Positions 20,370 through 61,138 of a stretch of 64,000 nucleotides of DNA are shown in pieces. The stretch is taken from the sequence record ON286972, one strand, 5' to 3'. The notes beneath the pieces were generated by a model. That model ran no database searches. It was given only the letters and a program-made list of their open reading frames with translations, and was not told the DNA's origin. Every line of letters begins with the position of its first letter. The stretch's first letter is position 1. The translations under genes and the position numbers were made by a program. This DNA is from Escherichia phage A4.

Positions 20370-23300
20370 TTATTGAATATTCAATAGATTTTCTATATCA
20401 GTTCCAGTAATTGACAATCCATTTCTGAATGTATCTAATGGAATTGGTGGATAGAAGTTTTGATATTGAGTAAACTTATCAATGCTCCCCAAGTTCAATC
20501 CATTAAAGCTATAAGACGTTCCTTTAGTAAAATTATGTTCCGCACTATACATGACACCACGTAATAGACGGTCAGTGTTTCTTACCTGAACCTTCTCATA
20601 TCCAACCACAATAATATCATCATTCTGTGCCGCAGCACCTGACAGTACTGAATCAGTAATGATATATGGGCTTATTGAACGAGGTTTAGCAACATAAGTG
20701 ATTGCCTCATCTTCAACGGTTGTAATGTTAATTACACCACATCCTACTTCTTTGATGAACGTGTTATTGACCACAGGTTGTGCATACTGCCACACGCGAT
20801 CATAACTTAGTACTGGTTGAATAACATCAACATCGTATTCAAATACAGTGATTTCAATACCATCAGTCATTTTAGCTCGTACTAGTTCACCCAGGACACC
20901 TTTACCAGAGATTGGCTGATTGTAACCATTATCAATTGTAATACCATCAACTTCAAAAATCTCATTGGAAACTAACCACAAATCAATTTCATCAGGTGTG
21001 ATACCATCATTGAATTTACCACCATATAATGTTTCGTCATAGAATACTTCATAGTTCAATGCATGTATACTGTAATGACGATTATTTTCATATAGTTTAA
21101 GTCCATTGTCATCAAACTCAGGGTCTTGGAAAGTGCGGATTCTAACTAAGTTCATTGATAATGTATAAAAACGCTCATTACTTTCACGCTTAGTTATACT
21201 ATCAAACATTAACACTACACCATTACTATCAACCAACTCTACGTTACCATTACCCAATACACGTACTGTGTATAGTTTTGGTTTTTTAGAGGATTGGATT
21301 TTACTAGCACTTAATATAGTTACCCAGTTACCGTCTTGGAATCGTACATAATCTTCACCATCTGGCGTGAAAATCATAACCTTATCACCATCTTTCAAAC
21401 CTTCATCGTGAACCTTGATTTCAGTAATTGTTTTAATTTCTGAAATTGGGAAGAAGTATTTTTCAGATTCTTTGAACACATCTTTACCCATATTCTCAAT
21501 GACAATATCATATGATGGAATACTTACAACTGCTTCTGACATATTGTAAGGGTTTTGTACGATCATACCCTCAATCTGGAATCTACTTGTGTCTTTTAAT
21601 TGCTCTTGAGCAACTTCATCGAAACCGTAACCATCAACAGTGAAACGTAATTGTGCCATTGTTCTTCCTGATGGGTTTAGTTCAGAAATGTCGATGATAT
21701 AAGGATCAATCTCACTATCTTTAACTTCCCATTTAATGGATTTGGTTTGTGATTCCAATGCCAAGTTATCGAATGCATTCATATCATTGAAATATTTTGC
21801 AGTATTGATACTTTCCAGTACTTCAACATATGCAGAATACATTGGATTATTCTGGTCTTGTGGTAAATCATTTAAATCAATTTCAGCCAATACAACTGAT
21901 TCTCCGGTTGTTATGAATAAGTCTTCCATGAAATCAGATATGCTGTAACTTTCAGGAATCGGTAGATATTCACCTGCCGCATTCACAACATACACATATT
22001 TCCTTGGCATCATAACAAAAGCATACTTATCAACTGCACGATTACTTAAGATTTCTCTAGCAACATAATAATGATCTAGAATATTCTTATTAAATGTTTG
22101 TCGCATTGCAGATAACACATGAACGGTATCAGAATAATAACGGTCATTTAATGTGGTATCATACTTGTAGCAATAAACACCATATTCTATCTCTAGTATA
22201 TTACGAACTTGGTCTTCATTAGTAAACTCAGGGTGATTTTTCTTGATCATATCGACATATTTTTCATATAATTCAATACTAATCTCAAAATAACCATAGT
22301 TGTAATCACTACTTGCACTGAACCCAAAAGGTAGGCGAGTATTAGGATTATCATTATAGTTCGTACCCTTAAATGGACAACCAATCTCATTAGAAACCAT
22401 GTCATCAGATATATTCTTAAACATTTTCACACGAGTTGCTAATGTATTGTATTGAATATATTTCTTAACGTCTTCTAAAATGTTACTGTTGTTTGTATCA
22501 GCAGTTACCTGCTCCAAATCAGCAGTAAATTGGTCAGTCATTGCAATATCAGTTGAATGGGCTTTATACCATGCATCAATTCCTTTAATGACACCATTAC
22601 TAATATCCAAATCTGAATATTTGGTAGTCATTTCAATACCAATCTGTGAAATTAAGGTATTATTATCATATTCAGGGAATGTATAAACATATCTCTGTAA
22701 TTCATAATCATTTCCTATATCCGAAGCATTAGATTGATACTTACTATTGGTTGATTTCAACTCATCAATTGTATAATTACTATCATACGGGTCACATTGA
22801 ATATTATCATAATGCATAATAACGTCGATTTCTTGGAATCGTCTGTTAGGTGTGATAAAGTCACTTGGTAGTGAACCAATCTTTTCCCAACGTTGGGTTA
22901 CGTCATTAAATTGTGCATATTCTAAATCCCAAATGTCTTTTTCAGTCTTAACCCACACACCATCAACTAAAATATAGCCATCTGGGTCAAGGTCATTACT
23001 GATACCATTAATCAAATCATCATCAGAAGTTTTCTGTTCTATTTGAGAACGGATTTTGGTTCTGTATGGTTTAACTTCTTCGAAGTACTCAACAATTTGA
23101 TTAATCAAGTTGTCATTTGAGTAGTTTTGTACGAGAGATTGTTCTAAACCTACAATATAGATATATGAGGTTTTGAATACCCAGTCAACAACACTTTGTT
23201 CAGTGTGTACGTACTTAACCATATCAAAAACAATATTACTTTGATATAAGTTGAATGAATTTTTCAACAACGCTAACGCATTACGAACGTTAACCTCATG

Positions 23301-40822: not shown

Positions 40823-40839
40823 TTGAAGTATTTATAGGT

Positions 40840-40867
40840 GGGACAAAGCTGATTTTAGTGCTATAAT
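40840..40867 (+). promoter_or_regulatory. sigma70-like promoter upstream of gene 55
   Basis: GGGACA-N16-TGcTATAAT. Confidence 0.5.
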
Positions 40868-42786: not shown

Positions 42787-44934
42787 ATGTTAAACATTAC
42801 ACGTATAACAATGAGGAATTTCTTTTCCTTTGGTAATGCACCACAAGTTATTGATTTAAATGGTGCTGACATATCTTTAGTACTCGGTCAAAACAATGAT
42901 GCTGTCATTGAAGGTGGTGATAGTTCTGGTCGTCGTAACGGTGTAGGTAAAAGTGCAATTATTCAAGGTCTTGTTTTTGGACTATTTGGAAAAAGTATTG
43001 GTAACGATATTAAAATTCCAAACTTAGTTAATAAAACAAATGCTAAAAATTGTGAAGTTACCGTTGAGTTCGAGAAAGACGGTATACAATACCTTGTTGA
43101 GCGTGGGCGTAGTCCCACATATTTCAATTTCATCACTCTAGGTCAGGACAATAAAGTTCTCGATGAATCAAGAGGTGAAAAGAAAGATACACAAGAAGAT
43201 CTAAATGAAATTCTCGGAATCTCTCAATTACTTTTTGAGCACATTGTAGTACTGAATGCTAACGTTGAACCTTTCCTTGCTCTTTCTTCACAGAAACAAC
43301 GTGATATGATTGAAGAGCTATTAGGTATTACCCAATTAACAGAGAAAGCTGAACTGTTAAAGGATATGAACAAAGAGTCAAAACGTTTAGCTGACCAAGA
43401 GAAGTTTAAAATTGAAACAGTTGCAGCAAGTAATGAACGCATTCAACGCAGCATTGAAACCTTACAGGAACAGGCTAATAAGTTTGAAATTGATAAGGCT
43501 AATAGAGTGCAAAAACTAAAAAGTGAATTGGAAGTATACAGTACTTTTGTATTTTCTGATTTATATGCTGCTGCTGAAGAGAAAGAAGAAGCACTTCTAC
43601 ACATCTCTAAACGTTTACAACTCGAACGTAGAGTTCAAGAACTTGCAGTGAAATATGATCAGTACGATAGAGAACTAGCCACTAATAAAAATATTATTCA
43701 GCATAGTATCGATAAATTAAAAACTATTGATATTGAATCTGAATTAAAAAACCATGAAGAAATGGAACTGTGGAAACAACTAGAATCTATCTTAAAAGAT
43801 AATCAGTTGCAAAAGAATTTCAAAACACAGAAACTAAATTCACTAAATCTTTCGTTGAATGCTCATATTAAATCTCTTACAGCAGAAGAAGAGAAATTAA
43901 AATCAGTTGAGGATAGTAAATGTCCACTTTGTTTATCAGAGTTGGAGCATAATGAGCATGGTAATGGTATAAAAGATAAGATTAATGATACTATTCGTCT
44001 AATCAGAGAAAATATAAGTAAGGTTGAGTTGGAAATTGCAACACTATCAGATGAAATCAATGCAATTGAGATATTTGATATGCCCCCTAAACCTGTAACT
44101 TTCTATAATACCCTTACCGAAGCCCAAATGCATGACCATAAGCTACAAGAACTTATTAAAAAGAGTGAGGAAGAACAAATTAACATCTACCGTGATGAAC
44201 TAATGTCTTCTTATGAGGCTCTTGATGCATTAGAAGTAAAGGAAGTTCCAGATGCGTTGAATAAATCAGAAGTTAAAGAGTTAGAAATGACTTTTAACTC
44301 ACTTACTCAACAACTTGAACACGAATTGAACACAACTAATACGTTTATTAGTCAGATTAATACTTTAACAACCGATTCGTTGGTTCCTATTGATTATACT
44401 GACTTCAATAACCTTGAAAAATTGGCTAATCACCAAGATTTCTTAGTTAAACTATTGCTCAATAAGGATAGTTATGTTCGTAAACGTATCATTGAACAAA
44501 ATATCTCATATTTGAACTCCAGATTGCAGTATTATATTGATATGTGTGGTTCAGAACACAATGTGGTCTTCTTGAATGACCTTAGTGTTGAGATTGAGAA
44601 GAGTGGGCAGTACTTTGACTATAAACAATTGAGTCGTGGAGAACGAACACGTGTTAATATTGCATTATCATGTGCTTTCCGCGATACTTATGAATCATTA
44701 TATCAAAGTATTAATATTCTTATCATAGATGAGATGATAGATCAGGGTCTTGATTCAAGTGGTGTTCTAAGAGTATGGTCAATCTTCCAGGATATGGCTG
44801 CTGTACGTGGTAAAAACGTATATGCAATATCTCACAGAGAAGAATTACTATCTAAAACAGAAAAAATCCTTAAAGTGGTTAAAGAAGACGGTTTCAGTAC
44901 TGTTGAATATGCTACTCTTGATGATATTTTCTAA
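42787..44934 (+). CDS. gp46: recombination endonuclease ATPase gp46 (Rad50/SbcC-like)
   Basis: Walker A GRRNGVGKSAI, zinc hook CPLC, long coiled coils, signature SRGERTRVNIAL, Walker B ILIIDEMIDQGLD; aligns with T4 gp46. Confidence 0.9.
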   Translation: MLNITRITMRNFFSFGNAPQVIDLNGADISLVLGQNNDAVIEGGDSSGRRNGVGKSAIIQGLVFGLFGKSIGNDIKIPNLVNKTNAKNCEVTVEFEKDGIQYLVERGRSPTYFNFITLGQDNKVLDESRGEKKDTQEDLNEILGISQLLFEHIVVLNANVEPFLALSSQKQRDMIEELLGITQLTEKAELLKDMNKESKRLADQEKFKIETVAASNERIQRSIETLQEQANKFEIDKANRVQKLKSELEVYSTFVFSDLYAAAEEKEEALLHISKRLQLERRVQELAVKYDQYDRELATNKNIIQHSIDKLKTIDIESELKNHEEMELWKQLESILKDNQLQKNFKTQKLNSLNLSLNAHIKSLTAEEEKLKSVEDSKCPLCLSELEHNEHGNGIKDKINDTIRLIRENISKVELEIATLSDEINAIEIFDMPPKPVTFYNTLTEAQMHDHKLQELIKKSEEEQINIYRDELMSSYEALDALEVKEVPDALNKSEVKELEMTFNSLTQQLEHELNTTNTFISQINTLTTDSLVPIDYTDFNNLEKLANHQDFLVKLLLNKDSYVRKRIIEQNISYLNSRLQYYIDMCGSEHNVVFLNDLSVEIEKSGQYFDYKQLSRGERTRVNIALSCAFRDTYESLYQSINILIIDEMIDQGLDSSGVLRVWSIFQDMAAVRGKNVYAISHREELLSKTEKILKVVKEDGFSTVEYATLDDIF

Positions 44935-44947
44935 TATAATGAATAAA

Positions 44948-44970
44948 GGGAGCCTTAGCTCCCTTTTTTT
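44948..44970 (+). terminator. rho-independent terminator after gene 46
   Basis: GGGAGC-ctta-GCTCCC then TTTTTTT; the convergent endo VII-like stop codon lies inside the hairpin. Confidence 0.65.
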
Positions 44971-45446
44971 ATATCTAACATGTTTAATTTGCCGTCCTTA
45001 ATAAGCTTCCTAGCCTGTTTTACACGAGCAGTAGTGTTGCTACCAGGGACAACTCCTAACCCTTCCAGAATCGCGTTTTGCTGCGTTGCTGGGAGCCTTT
45101 TAAACTTATTAACATCCACAGTTAATGCCGTGTGATGAATCACTTGCTCTTCTGGTGGAATATTATTGTTCTTTTCAAGATAATCTGCCAGATTTCTTAG
45201 TACTTCATGAAGAGGTTTATCAGTTAAATGACGCAAGTATCGATTGAAAGAGTTCTGCACCTTACCTTCCCATGCGTTAACCTCATTTTGTAGAACTTCT
45301 CTACAATGCTGGTTTTCGAAGTGATAGTGGTCGAGTACTGGTTTCTTAATCGGTTCCTTGATTATAGGATCAATACCTTTTTGCTTTTTTAATAATTCAT
45401 TTCTGTACGTAGCAGCTTCCTTACTATCTTTAAGTCTTCGTTTCAT
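44955..45446 (-). CDS. endonuclease VII-like nuclease (T4 gp49-like) lacking zinc-binding cysteines
   Basis: LDHYHFENQ...LQNEVNAWEGK...SFNRYL...YLEKN aligns with T4 endo VII LDHDHELNG...LCNLCNAAEGQ...KFNRSG...YLKSD; catalytic D/H/H/N/E kept, the four Cys ligands are absent. Confidence 0.55.
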   Translation of the reverse strand: MKRRLKDSKEAATYRNELLKKQKGIDPIIKEPIKKPVLDHYHFENQHCREVLQNEVNAWEGKVQNSFNRYLRHLTDKPLHEVLRNLADYLEKNNNIPPEEQVIHHTALTVDVNKFKRLPATQQNAILEGLGVVPGSNTTARVKQARKLIKDGKLNMLDIKKGS

Positions 45447-45469
45447 AATGTGCCTTAGATCTAAGTTAG

Positions 45470-45486
45470 TTTATGAAATATTTATG
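45470..45486 (-). promoter_or_regulatory. late-promoter-like motif before the endo VII-like gene
   Basis: Minus-strand CATAAATATTTCATAAA ~25 nt upstream of ATG 45446. Confidence 0.4.
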
Positions 45487-45543
45487 AAATACATTCCTAA
45501 GAAATTTTTAAGTACTTTTTTTATAAAAAAGATTAGATATTTT

Positions 45544-45571
45544 GAGACACTTTTAAATTGCGTGCTATAAT
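45544..45571 (+). promoter_or_regulatory. sigma70-like promoter firing into the ORF-free region
   Basis: GAGACA-N16-TGcTATAAT; same spacing as the clpA and gene 55 promoters. Confidence 0.45.
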
Positions 45572-45577
45572 GTTTCA

Positions 45578-46064
45578 TGTAGTACTGACAATCCTGTTGA
45601 ATGCAGAAATGCATATAAATTAGAACCTAATCCACTCGAAAATGTAGAGGGTAGATGAGCAGTTCAACAGTGCGATGAGCAAAAGAAACCCGTTAGATGT
45701 GGGCATATTATGAACCCCTCACGGCGACACGGCTCAATAAAGAACTCCGATAAGCATACAGAGAGTTCCTCGATAGTTCCTCGATAGATGTATAAGGATC
45801 GCACCTTACCAGATTTGCTAAGGGAGTTTGATGATTCATTTCATTAAACAGCCTGAAGTTTGATTGTATAGACTTTCAGGTGAGTGTCAGGATGTTTAAG
45901 ACTGACGACCGTTGCACATGACTGCGATAGAGAGAAACAGAGCAACCCGCTTTCGTTCTTAATATTTTTACAATATAATTACGTTTAAATTTTAAGAAAT
46001 TCGCAATACAATAATACCGATGCCATCAGCGTCAAGAAACAGAGACTTAATTGTCTCTTTTTTA
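45578..46064 (+). ncRNA. candidate non-coding transcript (promoter to terminator), family unknown
   Basis: Bounded by the promoter at 45544-45571 and the hairpin/T-run at 46041-46064; contains an 8-bp stem-loop (CCTGAAGT...ACTTTCAGG), a tandem 11-bp repeat and only very short ORFs. Confidence 0.3.
46041..46064 (+). terminator. candidate terminator inside the ORF-free region
   Basis: AGAGAC-ttaatt-GTCTCT then TTTTTT. Confidence 0.5.
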
Positions 46065-46149
46065 TTATCTTCATTCCCCTGCGGGGGGATGAAATATCCT
46101 CAACAAATCCCGTCAAGTATTAAATCATTTAAAGTTCTTTATAATTATA

Positions 46150-46245
46150 TTAAAATGAATATGAGTTAACGTAGTTAACGAATATTCTTCAGCTAACGAA
46201 TGAAATGAGTTAGATGAGTTCAATATAAATCAAATGAATTCCTTC
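46150..46245. repeat. cluster of short direct repeats (iteron-like)
   Basis: GTTAACG x2, TAACGAAT x2, ATGAGTT x3 within ~90 bp, followed by an A-tract. Confidence 0.4.
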
Positions 46246-46307
46246 AAGAATAAATCTTTTAAGATCATAATTTCTTTCATCTACTTTGTAAGTAAAAATC
46301 CAAAAAA

Positions 46308-46341
46308 CAAAAACAAAAAAAAACCAGCAACAATGTGCTGG
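46308..46341 (-). terminator. rho-independent terminator
   Basis: Minus-strand CCAGCA...UGCUGG hairpin followed by a run of nine U. Confidence 0.6.
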
Positions 46342-46354
46342 CTTCTTATGAGTA

Positions 46355-46516
46355 TTAGTGCTTCTCGTTCATCTTCTTTACTTTCTTATTGTATGCCTTA
46401 ATAAGCATATCTCTGTCATTTACTGGCATATTAAGTAGAGTTGCATAATCGACATTATCTACATAAACAGCAGCATCCATAAGGGCATTTTTAATATCTG
46501 ATTTATTCAACTCCAT
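46355..46516 (-). CDS. small hypothetical protein (53 aa)
   Basis: Short ORF (MELNKSDIKNALMDAAVYVDNVDYATLL...) between the zinc-ribbon gene and a terminator; weak Shine-Dalgarno; below ORF-track size cut-off. Confidence 0.2.
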   Translation of the reverse strand: MELNKSDIKNALMDAAVYVDNVDYATLLNMPVNDRDMLIKAYNKKVKKMNEKH

Positions 46517-46533
46517 ATCATCCAGAAGTTCTT

Positions 46534-47421
46534 TTATTTCTTCTGGGTTTGAGAAGAGAAGCTGAGATCGAAAAAATGAGTAGGGTCATACTTTAATCCA
46601 GTAAGTTCCCATTGATGCTGACATTCAATACATTCAACTTCCATTGTATGCGATACACCAATCTCTAGTACTTCATCCATTTTCTCTCTGATTTGCTTGA
46701 TCACTTCTTTTGATTGAGTACCTAACCATTCACTTATGAATTTCTTATCTGATACTTCATCACCATCAGGAGTAATTACTTTATCAATAACTCCAGCAAT
46801 CATATCAAAGTTTAGTTGTGCCATGTTTTCAAATACTTCAGAAAACATTTTAATTTTATCATCTTCTGAAATATCAATAGTACTCTCAAGATACTTAGTT
46901 TTTTGTTGTTCAGCTAACATACGTTGAGAAAACTCTGAATATTCTTTCCAAGTAAGTGGTCTGAACTGAAGAGACAAACCATTATTAAGATCAATACTAG
47001 GAATTTCAGTAAAAGATTCTGCCGTTTCCAATAGATAAGAAAGATCACGTTCAAAACGGCCTTCTTTGGAACATGATGGACATACGACATTGACATCATA
47101 ACTGGTTTCTTTGGATGCTAACTTGATAGCAATAAGAATTTGCTCAACATCATTGACAAAAAGCTCATCTGCGTTTAGAATGTTTGGTACACAGTTTTCG
47201 ATAACAGATGACACTGCACTACCATTGAGTAACATATCAGGTGTATTGAGCATCATTTCGTCACGAGCACTACGAGCACAGACACCACATTTAATGCCTT
47301 TGCTCCCCAATACACCATCTTTGTACTGGAAAATGTTGTTAGTGACGAGTTTAGTACTAATTTCTTCGATTTTTGTGTATTTTGCTAACGGGTTCATTGA
47401 CATAATACTTTCTCCATGCAA
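46534..47421 (-). CDS. Cys-rich (zinc-ribbon) hypothetical protein
   Basis: 295-aa ORF with CGVC, CPSC and CIEC pairs suggesting two zinc ribbons; function unassigned. Confidence 0.5.
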   Translation of the reverse strand: MHGESIMSMNPLAKYTKIEEISTKLVTNNIFQYKDGVLGSKGIKCGVCARSARDEMMLNTPDMLLNGSAVSSVIENCVPNILNADELFVNDVEQILIAIKLASKETSYDVNVVCPSCSKEGRFERDLSYLLETAESFTEIPSIDLNNGLSLQFRPLTWKEYSEFSQRMLAEQQKTKYLESTIDISEDDKIKMFSEVFENMAQLNFDMIAGVIDKVITPDGDEVSDKKFISEWLGTQSKEVIKQIREKMDEVLEIGVSHTMEVECIECQHQWELTGLKYDPTHFFDLSFSSQTQKK

Positions 47422-47480
47422 TAATTATGAAAGTATTTATGTATGTTCAAAACTTCAAAATCACCCAAGAGGAATATTTT

Positions 47481-47969
47481 ATGATAAAGACAACAATCAA
47501 ACGTTTGTTCCAAGCCTTTGGTATCTTTATGGTTGTTATGTTAGTAATCGGTATGATTGTTCCGAAAAGCGAAACATCCACAACTAAAGAATCAGAGTAC
47601 AAAGAGCAGTTAACTAAACGTGAATTACCAACACAAATTGTTAGCTACAAAGGTAAACTGTATAACGAAGATCCTAACGAGGAACATTTAAAATGGACAT
47701 TCATCCAATTCACTGTTAACGGTGATGAAGTACTGATGGGTCAGACATATGAATCATGGAGTTATATTGGAAGTACTGCATCTGGATATGATGTTTATTA
47801 CAACATTAACGACTTCACTTATACTGTCGGCGGTGTTCAAAAGACAGTAAAACTTGAAGGTACATTGTATGTTAATAGAGAAACAAACTCTATCATATTC
47901 AGTAATAAAAATGTTAGTGACGGTTCACCAAAACGAACCTATAGTGCAGTACTGGAACCACGATACTAA
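47481..47969 (+). CDS. membrane-anchored hypothetical protein
   Basis: Start set at ATG 47481 (AAGAGGA Shine-Dalgarno); one N-terminal hydrophobic helix FGIFMVVMLVIGMIV then soluble domain; terminator follows. Confidence 0.45.
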   Translation: MIKTTIKRLFQAFGIFMVVMLVIGMIVPKSETSTTKESEYKEQLTKRELPTQIVSYKGKLYNEDPNEEHLKWTFIQFTVNGDEVLMGQTYESWSYIGSTASGYDVYYNINDFTYTVGGVQKTVKLEGTLYVNRETNSIIFSNKNVSDGSPKRTYSAVLEPRY

Positions 47970-61103: not shown

Positions 61104-61110
61104 AATTTTT

Positions 61111-61138
61111 GGGACACATTGAGAAGTACTGATATAAT
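61111..61138 (+). promoter_or_regulatory. sigma70-like promoter upstream of the polymerase block
   Basis: GGGACA-N16-TGaTATAAT. Confidence 0.45.

Follow-up and report, generated by a model that had tools for sequence, protein, structure and literature searches.

A family of large, pseudoknot-rich structured RNAs in Rak2-like jumbo phages and in integrative islands of their hosts

The locus and its conservation

The 64,000-nucleotide stretch of Escherichia phage A4 analysed here (sequence record ON286972, hereafter the window) was placed by megablast in the 121Q/PBECO4 group of Rak2-like jumbo phages, relatives of Asteriusvirus with genomes of about 350 kb. It contains an interval free of open reading frames (ORFs), within an 870-bp gap between two minus-strand gene sets, for which an original prediction made from the sequence had proposed a structured non-coding RNA running from its own promoter to a terminator. 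Comparative analyses led us to conclude with high confidence that positions 45543-46115 of the + strand are a true gene for a structured RNA that represents a new family. The features of the locus are as follows.

44955-45446, - strand: endonuclease VII (endoVII) gene, left flank of the gap
45543-45571, + strand: promoter from the consensus scan, with a -35-like TGAGACA (45543-45549) and an extended -10 TGCTATAAT (45563-45571)
45577-46115, + strand: conserved RNA body (local positions 1-539, the window coordinate minus 45576), defined on alignment A1 of 28 copies and on a 67-copy set; no conserved ORF
46041-46064, + strand: hairpin P17 (AGAGAC-TTAATT-GTCTCT) followed by a U-run (TTTTTT in the DNA), from the terminator scan
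46071-46092, + strand: near-invariant hairpin P18, UCAUUCCCC-UGCG-GGGGGAUGA, kept in every copy, the bacterial ones included
46104-46115, + strand: conserved tail CAAAUCCCGUCA, kept in every copy
46116-46244, + strand: AT-rich downstream stretch, weakly conserved (70.5% identical to 121Q)
46355-46516, - strand: 53-aa ORF, right flank of the gap
46534-47421, - strand: baseplate-hub gene, right flank beyond the 53-aa ORF

The ORF-free stretch was found by sensitive BLAST in 71 phage records, with up to five matching places per record. Its identity to the window was 84-88% in the Escherichia 121Q group, 72% in Serratia BF and Erwinia, 70% in Salmonella 7t3 and Munch, 69% in Yersinia fHe-Yen9-04, 69% in Pectobacterium CBB, 67% in Cronobacter GAP32 and, over the core only, 75-81% in Klebsiella RaK2 and K64-1. 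Between the window and 121Q, the RNA body (45577-46115) was 93.9% identical at the nucleotide level, and the neighbouring features were less so (endoVII gene 82.1%, gp46-like gene 76.9%, hub gene 74.2%, 53-aa ORF 72.8%, right spacer 70.5%, left spacer 60.7%). The RNA body is shown by these identities to be the most constrained feature of its neighbourhood, under purifying selection above that on the adjacent protein genes. Self-BLAST and nhmmer detected no second copy of the RNA within the window.

As had been predicted, the region between the promoter and the T-run contains only very short ORFs, none above 49 aa (the longest, on either strand, were 34-49 aa), and the corresponding gap of 121Q carries no annotation. 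Some GenBank records call two to four 'hypothetical proteins' under the match, which would speak for a decayed protein gene or a cluster of small-protein genes. The called ORFs disagree in strand and position among records, however, and no intact protein gene was found at the locus in related phages; the presence of one had been named in the original prediction as what would make the region a decayed pseudogene. In a coding test on 67 homologues, the median longest ATG-initiated ORF was 45 aa and the per-frame medians were 15-21 aa. The 28 substitutions relative to 121Q were distributed 6/10/12 by position modulo 3, without 3-periodicity; the indels (52 columns) did not come in threes, and substitutions were compensatory within RNA helices. 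One 49-aa ORF, across helices P16-P18 of the model given below, was rejected, its frame being broken in 121Q by a 1-nt indel. A protein-coding explanation is almost certainly wrong.

Known RNA families were also searched. At the gathering score, Rfam 15 gave no family in the whole 64-kb window, so that the Rfam/Infernal scan suggested with the original prediction returned no match. In E-value mode, the locus, 10 other copies and a divergent subfamily (see below) gave scattered sub-threshold noise from small nucleolar RNA, microRNA and small RNA models with no recurring family, and the bacterial loci gave an unrelated thiamine pyrophosphate (TPP) riboswitch only. ARAGORN found no tRNA and no transfer-messenger RNA in the window. 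These scans bear out the earlier failure to recognise a tRNA or a group I intron core by inspection, and the RNA family is shown to be new in that it is absent from Rfam 15.

Four more specific identities were tried and rejected. A group I intron is at odds with the RNA's own promoter, its intergenic position and the lack of an Intron_gpI match at E < 10, and a bacterial RNase P RNA gave no model match. The segment with an RNase-P-like CR-V motif seen by eye (ACAGAGCAACCCGCUUU) turned out to form hairpin P14, which is local and covaries, together with pseudoknot pk4. A hammerhead-like motif (GAUGAG ... GAAA), likewise seen by eye, lacks a conserved A14 and had no covariance-model match. No prior description of the RNA was found in the literature on 121Q, PBECO4, RaK2, GAP32 and CBB; overlap with one recent preprint on non-coding RNA mining is possible.

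Covariation and the fold of the + strand transcript

To support a fold, we used two sets of homologues, the 28 copies of alignment A1 and the second set of 67 copies below 96% identity. On A1, RNAalifold gave 69 base pairs, and compensatory double changes were present at 46 of these. A pseudoknotted model was then assembled from RNAalifold, a covariation scan and inspection, and was compared with slid controls, in which pairing partners were shifted by 1-3 columns. At least 18 helices of this model were supported, four of them pseudoknots. In A1, 84.5% of cells were paired versus 36-45% in the slid controls, both sides had changed in 69 of the 105 pairs versus 20-30, and the covariation score was 0.356 versus 0.055-0.102; none of 500 shuffles reached the observed values. 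The A1 result was repeated on the 67-copy set (83.8% of cells paired versus 39-43% slid).

In well-aligned helices, G-U cells far outnumbered A-C cells (359 versus 24), an excess which indicates that the folded molecule is the + strand transcript and neither the minus strand nor duplex DNA. About 100 positions were invariant in the 28 copies, and many of these lie in junctions or loops (GAAAAnGUA, GAUGAG, UAAGGGAG, GACCGU, ACCCGC). The comparison with the homologous region of related phages that had been proposed as a check thus came out in favour of the predicted structured non-coding RNA transcribed from its own promoter: compensatory covariation, four pseudoknots, the wobble asymmetry and the conservation of the body all support it.

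The elements of the fold upstream of P17, all on the + strand, are listed below.

45594-45670: 5' domain, in which pk1 encloses P2 and P3
45594-45601 (CUGUUGAA) with 45663-45670 (UUCAACAG, loop of hairpin P4): pk1
45602-45613: P2, with a GAAA loop; 43-58% paired in automatic alignments, compensatory variants by eye
45632-45651: P3, with the invariant loop GAAAAnGUA; 95-97% paired, 5/5 pairs covary
45654-45659: invariant GAUGAG preceding P4
45659-45673: P4 hairpin (GCA...UGC); 100% paired, 2/3 pairs covary
45676-45680 with 45732-45736: P5, enclosing P5a and a variable arm; 97-99% paired, 3-4 covarying pairs
45689-45690 with 45723-45724: P5a (CC:GG); about 96-98% kept, never varying
45727-45729 (ACA) with 45789-45791 (UGU): pk2; 96-99% paired, variants AUG/CAU, AUA/UAU, ACA/UGU
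45742-45746 (GAACU) with 45775-45779 (AGUUC), or with the duplicated copy 45764-45768: P7; 98-99% paired, 5/5 pairs covary
45764-45785: tandem AGTTCCTCGAT x2, duplicating the 3' strand of P7
45794-45807: P8 hairpin; 79-82% paired
45819-45826: single-stranded, Shine-Dalgarno-like UAAGGGAG; AAGGGA invariant in 28 copies
45852-45880: P10 hairpin, whose loop AUUGUA (45863-45868) forms pk3
45863-45868 (AUUGUA) with 46007-46012 (UACAAU): pk3; 98.7% paired in 67 copies, 99.4% in A1
45886-45906: P11 hairpin (GUCAG...CUGAC); 94% paired, 3-5 covarying pairs
45907-45954: core, with invariant GACCGU (45907-45912) and invariant ACCCGC (45945-45950)
45911-45915 (GUUGC) with 45942-45946 (GCAAC, loop of P14): pk4; 100% paired
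45923-45927 with 46001-46005: P13, enclosing P14 and P15; 99.7-100% paired, 4 covarying pairs
45930-45934 with 45950-45954: P14; 100% paired
45957-45959 with 45995-45997: P15, a variable arm; 98% paired, 3/3 pairs covary
46019-46033: P16 hairpin (GAUGC-CAUCA-GCGUC); covarying GACGA/UCGUC in BF-type copies, by eye

The four pseudoknots were examined individually. For pk1, 37 of the 62 copies checked one by one have the 8-bp duplex, and there are many compensatory variants, among them CUGAUUGA/UCAAUCAG, CUGCUUGG/UCAAGCAG, CUGAAAGG/CCUUUCAG and GUGUGG/CCACAC. The window and 121Q differ by a double compensatory change exactly in pk2 (local positions 152/153 and 213/214), as many as four kinds of pair occur at single positions of pk3 (for example AU 25, UA 19, CG 10, GC 8), and pk4 takes the form GUCAU/AUGAC in the 90-kb paralogue of 121Q.

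The helices P2, P9, P10a and P16 were judged by inspection, as indels make the automatic alignment unreliable there. For P5a, covariation is uninformative, since both pairs never vary, and an extension to CCGU/ACGG with two extra pairs was discarded after failing in 28 of 28 sequences. The 8-bp stem-loop predicted at 45851-45879 is real and corresponds to P10; its inner six pairs (P10b) are 95% paired in the 67 copies, four of them covarying, and its outer five pairs (P10a) are unconfirmed, since they are 48% paired in the indel-prone 67-copy alignment versus 77% with the partner slid by one column. The tandem 11-bp repeat predicted at 45764-45785 could be read from the sequence as such; it is private to the window phage, being absent from 121Q, UE-S1 and all 27 other rows of A1. 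The Shine-Dalgarno-like element, kept in the divergent subfamily as AAGGGAG or AAAGGAG, was considered as a translation signal and rejected, with no conserved start codon or ORF following it in A1. By eye, the arms P9 (45826-45850) and P15 (45957-45997) were seen in A1 to share a recurrent sub-module, (U)ACAAnAnAG(A/U)UCCGUC...AAAAUU, which is located in P9 of some paralogues, in P15 of others and in both in the 247-kb copy of 121Q, the behaviour of an interchangeable cassette.

Copies in jumbo phages and in bacterial islands

The predicted single unit proved real, and it is not a one-off: it belongs to a multi-copy family. Four copies were found in 121Q by a profile scan outside 250-322 kb, and BLAST likewise gave four places.

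About 90.3 kb, + strand: after the sigma-factor gene
192.7 kb, + strand: before gene 416 and a DNA methyltransferase gene
247.4 kb, + strand: third copy
326.6 kb, + strand: orthologue of the window copy

A separate observation in 121Q was a 2-kb unannotated gap (135194-137161) after about 17 paralogous genes of about 60 aa, with a promoter-like site at 135736; it lies outside the RNA family.

We then derived a degenerate pattern from the invariant core (GACCGU ... ACCCGC) and ran it on IMG/VR, metagenomes and bacterial genomes. IMG/VR yielded 63 loci, with at least five per genome in BF, GAP32 and CBB, four in fHe-Yen9-04 and 121Q and two in RaK2, and the metagenomes yielded 81 loci. Rak2-like phages carry 4-6 copies per genome at fixed positions, with the two found in RaK2 below this range. 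Applied to all retrieved loci, nhmmer gave 163 matches, of which 113 were full-length and 86 unique, leaving 64 after 96% clustering.

The order endoVII-RNA-53-aa ORF-hub was kept in Serratia BF, Yersinia fHe-Yen9-04, GAP32 and CBB, in which the flanking proteins are just 50-76% identical, and each remaining paralogue class has its own conserved downstream gene. No presence/absence polymorphism was seen among the paralogue classes, the flanking genes being fixed across genera. Since gene neighbourhoods are kept across diverged genera, the duplications are ancient and the copies are positional orthologues without sign of recent mobility.

This synteny bears on the possibility that the element is the remnant or passenger of a mobile element, such as a group I or II intron-like ribozyme, an IS200/IS605 omega-RNA or HEARO guide, or an element resembling a miniature inverted-repeat transposable element with P18 as its subterminal hairpin. 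The multiple copies per genome, their occurrence on integrative islands as well, the conserved terminal hairpin, the HNH endonuclease genes near two of the 121Q copies (at a distance of two or three genes) and the endonuclease VII gene adjoining the window copy would all fit such an origin. It is largely refuted by the fixed orthologous position of each paralogue class across genera; in addition, the RNA has its own promoter outside any host gene, no Rfam intron, HEARO or ribozyme model matched even at E < 10, and no TnpB, IscB, reverse transcriptase or transposase gene is adjacent. We therefore rate a mobile-element origin as highly improbable and treat it, together with the protein-coding explanation, as effectively excluded.

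In bacteria, the core pattern had four matches in about 186,000 species-representative genomes (Serratia fonticola, Serratia sp., Silvania hatchlandensis and an Enterobacteriaceae metagenome-assembled genome), and BLAST found the RNA in 2 of 5,426 complete E. coli genomes. These copies are full-length homologues (E 1e-68 to 1e-78) including P18 and the tail, at loci that the Prokaryotic Genome Annotation Pipeline left unannotated. The position of the RNA is the edge of an integrated element, where three cases have a large serine recombinase as its neighbour and one metagenome contig has a tyrosine integrase. Most of the bacterial single copies adjoin an integrase, a CI-like repressor or both, and the RNA is often convergent with a CI-like S24 repressor gene. 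In Serratia fonticola it adjoins two ParB/RepB genes. In E. coli LR-29-1, the homologue lies in a 1.4-kb unannotated gap of an island of about 10 kb between ffs and ybaA, which also carries an IS3-disrupted integrase, a resolvase and the PADLOC candidate defence system PDC-M45 (dual-OB, DUF488, DUF4326). Annotation of island neighbours with PHROGs and PADLOC gave integrase, ParB, proteins without assignment and PDC-M45, and nothing that would explain the RNA. None of the temperate phages in the INPHARED collection carried it.

In two islands (L080 and L158), one and the same strand carries the integrase gene, the RNA and a conserved 286-aa gene and is antisense to the CI-like repressor gene, so that read-through from the RNA promoter would cross the repressor gene in antisense into the 286-aa gene.

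A divergent subfamily was also found on ENA metagenome contigs (L103, L139, L161, L114, L149 and L150). It shares only the 3' half, from UAAGGGAG through P18, has another 5' domain and carries about 170 nt of extra conserved hairpins up to the ribosome-binding site of the next gene; its neighbours include DUF6267 and BNR-repeat proteins.

Transcript ends and possible functions

The well-formed promoter predicted at 45544-45571 was recovered by the consensus scan as a near-consensus, sigma-70-type extended -10 promoter on the + strand, read either as TTGAGA-18-TATAAT with TG (11/12 matches) or as GAGACA-16-TATAAT (45542/45544-45571). Promoter-like sites are not enriched in 44500-47500 (15 versus 12.9 expected), so the call rests on conservation and not on the scan: the motif TG(G/A)(G/A)AC(A/G)-N13-14-TGnTATAAT precedes each jumbo-phage copy examined, and island copies have weaker, more sigma-70-like versions of it. 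Transcription would start at about 45577-45579. In 121Q the same promoter class also precedes ssb, primase, exonuclease and topoisomerase genes, and two further members were noted in the window (40839-40867 and 61110-61138, both + strand, TGGGACA-N13/14-TGnTATAAT). The type was described in CBB and GAP32 as 'divergent RpoD-like' and upstream of DNA-synthesis genes (Buttimer et al., PMC5259590); the CBB paper describes the promoter class and not the RNA. The RNA is probably expressed together with the replication genes.

A promoter class in common with replication genes is one of several features that the family shares with RNA-primed replication origins such as ColE1 RNA II or the R-loops of T4 oriF/oriG, the latter of which use middle-mode promoters. 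At such an origin, the transcript would stay hybridised near the U-run and the G/C hairpin, be processed by the phage RNase H and prime the leading strand, and the island copies would let an infecting jumbo phage replicate the island. The distance from promoter to U-run (about 490 nt) is near the length of ColE1 RNA II (about 550 nt), the 4-6 copies are dispersed over a 350-kb genome with all four of 121Q on the + strand, and conserved DNA extends beyond the U-run, through a G/C hairpin into AT-rich sequence that contains short repeats. 121Q also encodes RNase H, UvsW-like and gp41-like helicases and a primase, and the ParB/RepB neighbours in Serratia fonticola would suit an origin as well. 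On the other side, four covarying pseudoknots and many invariant loop nucleotides far exceed the needs of any known primer RNA. Origins of T4 are also redundant and little conserved, in contrast to the paralogues here, all of which have been retained since before the genera diverged.

Further observations also bear on an origin. The window RNA is far more elaborate and far better conserved in structure than ColE1 RNA II or the T4 transcripts, it occurs on islands without replication genes too, and a location between integrase and repressor would be unusual for an origin. No antisense copy-control RNA or initiator gene was found associated, antisense RNA not having been searched for systematically; the sole minus-strand promoter-like site in the RNA body (45890-45863) is located mid-RNA, not near the 5' end, in a region variable between copies. 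The GC skew of the window tracks gene orientation and has no origin-like signal. We consider a replication origin unlikely, the structural complexity weakening this explanation.

The 3' end of the RNA differs from the one predicted. The clean hairpin and T-run proposed at 46041-46064 are real: the P17 stem is 91-97% paired where present, with 4-5 covarying pairs. They are optional in the family, however, and do not form the right-hand boundary, which had been placed wrongly, as strong conservation passes the T-run through 46071-46092 and 46104-46115. In a rough per-copy scan, P17 and the U-run were scored in 30 of 67 copies, and with a few of the 37 negatives misparsed or near threshold the true figure is about half; in copies without P17, P16 is joined to P18 by 7-28 nt. 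P17 therefore fails as the 3' end of the family, being absent from some members and followed by further conservation, and such inconstancy rules it out as the expression platform of a riboswitch-like device. P18 varies solely by C/U changes, which preserve G-U wobble pairing on the + strand and so weakly hint that P18 is transcribed. One bacterial copy has a 10-bp P17 and still keeps P18 and the tail after it. This leaves two explanations: P17 may be leaky or regulated, or P18 and the tail may function in the DNA.

Downstream of the tail, the stretch 46116-46244 aligns with an UP-element and TTGACA early promoter that follows many other copies and that has decayed to TTCAGC in the window; its part at about 46160-46200, with the short repeats GAGTTAACG, TAGTTAACG and CAGCTAACG, looks like a decayed promoter at a convergent locus. 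Because the downstream genes are convergent and the aligned positional orthologues all keep P17 (every A1 row of this class that was checked carries the hairpin and U-run), the RNA at the window locus would be stand-alone. Terminator-like sites are more frequent in 44500-47500 than expected (six versus 1.2). Two others were noted: a bidirectional terminator at 44945-44966, between the gp46-like gene and endoVII, and a strong minus-strand terminator at 46318-46347 (12-bp stem and T-run), which ends the operon of the hub gene and the 53-aa ORF just right of the RNA unit.

Another possibility is a cis-acting transcription module that works on the transcribing polymerase, by processive antitermination like HK022 put or by control of read-through at P17. 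Such a module would govern the expression of what lies downstream: sense operons in most copies, antisense transcripts over the baseplate-hub genes here and over cI in islands. At least in jumbo-phage copies, the RNA begins at the transcription start after its own promoter; several paralogues per genome head long arrays of co-directional genes, and the conserved gene downstream differs from one paralogue to the next; the half of the copies without a terminator must read through; and conserved sequence continues past the terminator. The hairpin-rich sequence of the divergent subfamily that reaches the next ribosome-binding site, and the one-strand arrangement of the L080 and L158 islands, would also fit. 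HK022 putL/putR are alike in being promoter-proximal, in heading operons as several paralogues and in keeping their fold while the sequence diverges.

In architecture the two differ, put having about 70 nt and two stem-loops and the window RNA about 500 nt and four pseudoknots while facing convergent genes, which is an order of magnitude beyond put or EAR. Moreover, the downstream genes are mutually unrelated, and the positional class of the window is convergent with late genes and has a terminator after the RNA in every orthologue examined. A cis-acting role is doubtful, being weakened by the structural complexity and further by the convergent context of the window class.

The explanation that we prefer is a discrete RNA gene whose folded transcript would itself be the functional product. 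Host RNA polymerase would transcribe an autonomously folding, pseudoknot-rich RNA of about 490-540 nt from about 45577 in the early or middle phase; part of the transcripts would end at the optional hairpin and U-run (46064), and the remainder would pass through the invariant 3' hairpin and tail (46115). By analogy with GOLLD, ROOL and OLE, we tentatively propose that this RNA acts in trans as an RNA machine, which may be a scaffold for a ribonucleoprotein, an assembly of RNA alone or a ribozyme-like molecule. Simple leaders or primers do not typically have four pseudoknots and about 100 invariant positions, whereas RNA machines do. The machine would target a component common to Enterobacterales hosts, and such action would explain its retention both by virulent jumbo phages and by islands of the same hosts.

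Several observations weigh against this interpretation. The minimum free energy z-score of the single sequence is an unremarkable -1.68, so that the case rests on comparative evidence and not on folding energy. There is no defined 3' end, the half without a terminator running into co-directional genes 90-190 nt downstream, and the most invariant element, P18 with the tail, lies behind the terminator where one is present, an unexpected place for a discrete RNA acting in trans. The paralogues, 4-6 in number, occupy fixed positions, and three of the four in 121Q head long co-directional gene arrays, an arrangement that a cis role would fit too. Finally, tblastn of island ORFs against the jumbo-phage loci and against each other revealed no consistent protein partner. 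The matches were limited to an ADP-ribosylglycohydrolase-like ORF, a DUF4326 protein and island backbone proteins, the first of these being probably a host gene because it is about 4 kb off, beyond the host thiamine genes. That phages and islands share the RNA and no protein points to a host-side or RNA-only function.

Among known large RNAs, GOLLD and ROOL, and more loosely OLE and raiA, resemble the family in their size of several hundred nucleotides, pseudoknots, invariant junctions, carriage by phages or prophages and lack of a coding role; the functions of GOLLD and ROOL were unknown at discovery. The window family differs from all four in lacking homology to them in sequence or structure, as no Rfam model matched, in its occurrence in Enterobacterales jumbo phages and islands rather than in Firmicutes, rumen and lake samples, in its location away from tRNA genes and in its 2-6 diverged paralogues per genome at fixed positions. 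A stronger version of the trans-acting proposal we regard as improbable. In it, the family would be a novel class of large RNA, catalytic or self-assembling and comparable in scale to RNase P, GOLLD or ROOL; Rak2-like jumbo phages would need several specialised paralogues, and the single island copies, located between integrase and repressor and in one case next to a candidate defence system, would serve as a handle in phage-island conflict. An island would then either hijack the infecting jumbo phage through the RNA or origin module that both have in common, or deploy its own copy as a decoy against the phage.

Long non-coding RNAs in such phages have a precedent in PA5oct, a member of the wider Rak2-related clade, in which RNA sequencing revealed abundant transcripts of 236-619 nt, ncRNA001-004, from ORF-free regions (PMC7318152). 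The one that we compared, ncRNA002 (21951-22401, 451 nt, GC-rich), has no similarity to the present family and lacks all of its invariant motifs. Jumbo phages of the wider clade may carry several unrelated long non-coding RNAs.

To our knowledge, large and intricately folded RNAs of bacteria and phages are rare and limited to a handful of classes: RNase P, group I and II introns, OLE, GOLLD and ROOL. Each known class opened a research line, and the present family has unusually strong comparative support. Its carriers include cultivable phages of E. coli, Salmonella, Klebsiella and Serratia (121Q, PBECO4, phAPEC6, RaK2 and BF), which are open to genetics, RNA sequencing, structure probing and cryo-electron microscopy. 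Jumbo-phage annotation gains a missing gene class, most such phages having 4-6 loci per genome that are unannotated or wrongly annotated. The RNA connects virulent jumbo phages with small integrative islands of their hosts, and it may point to how 350-kb phage genomes initiate replication or organise transcription.

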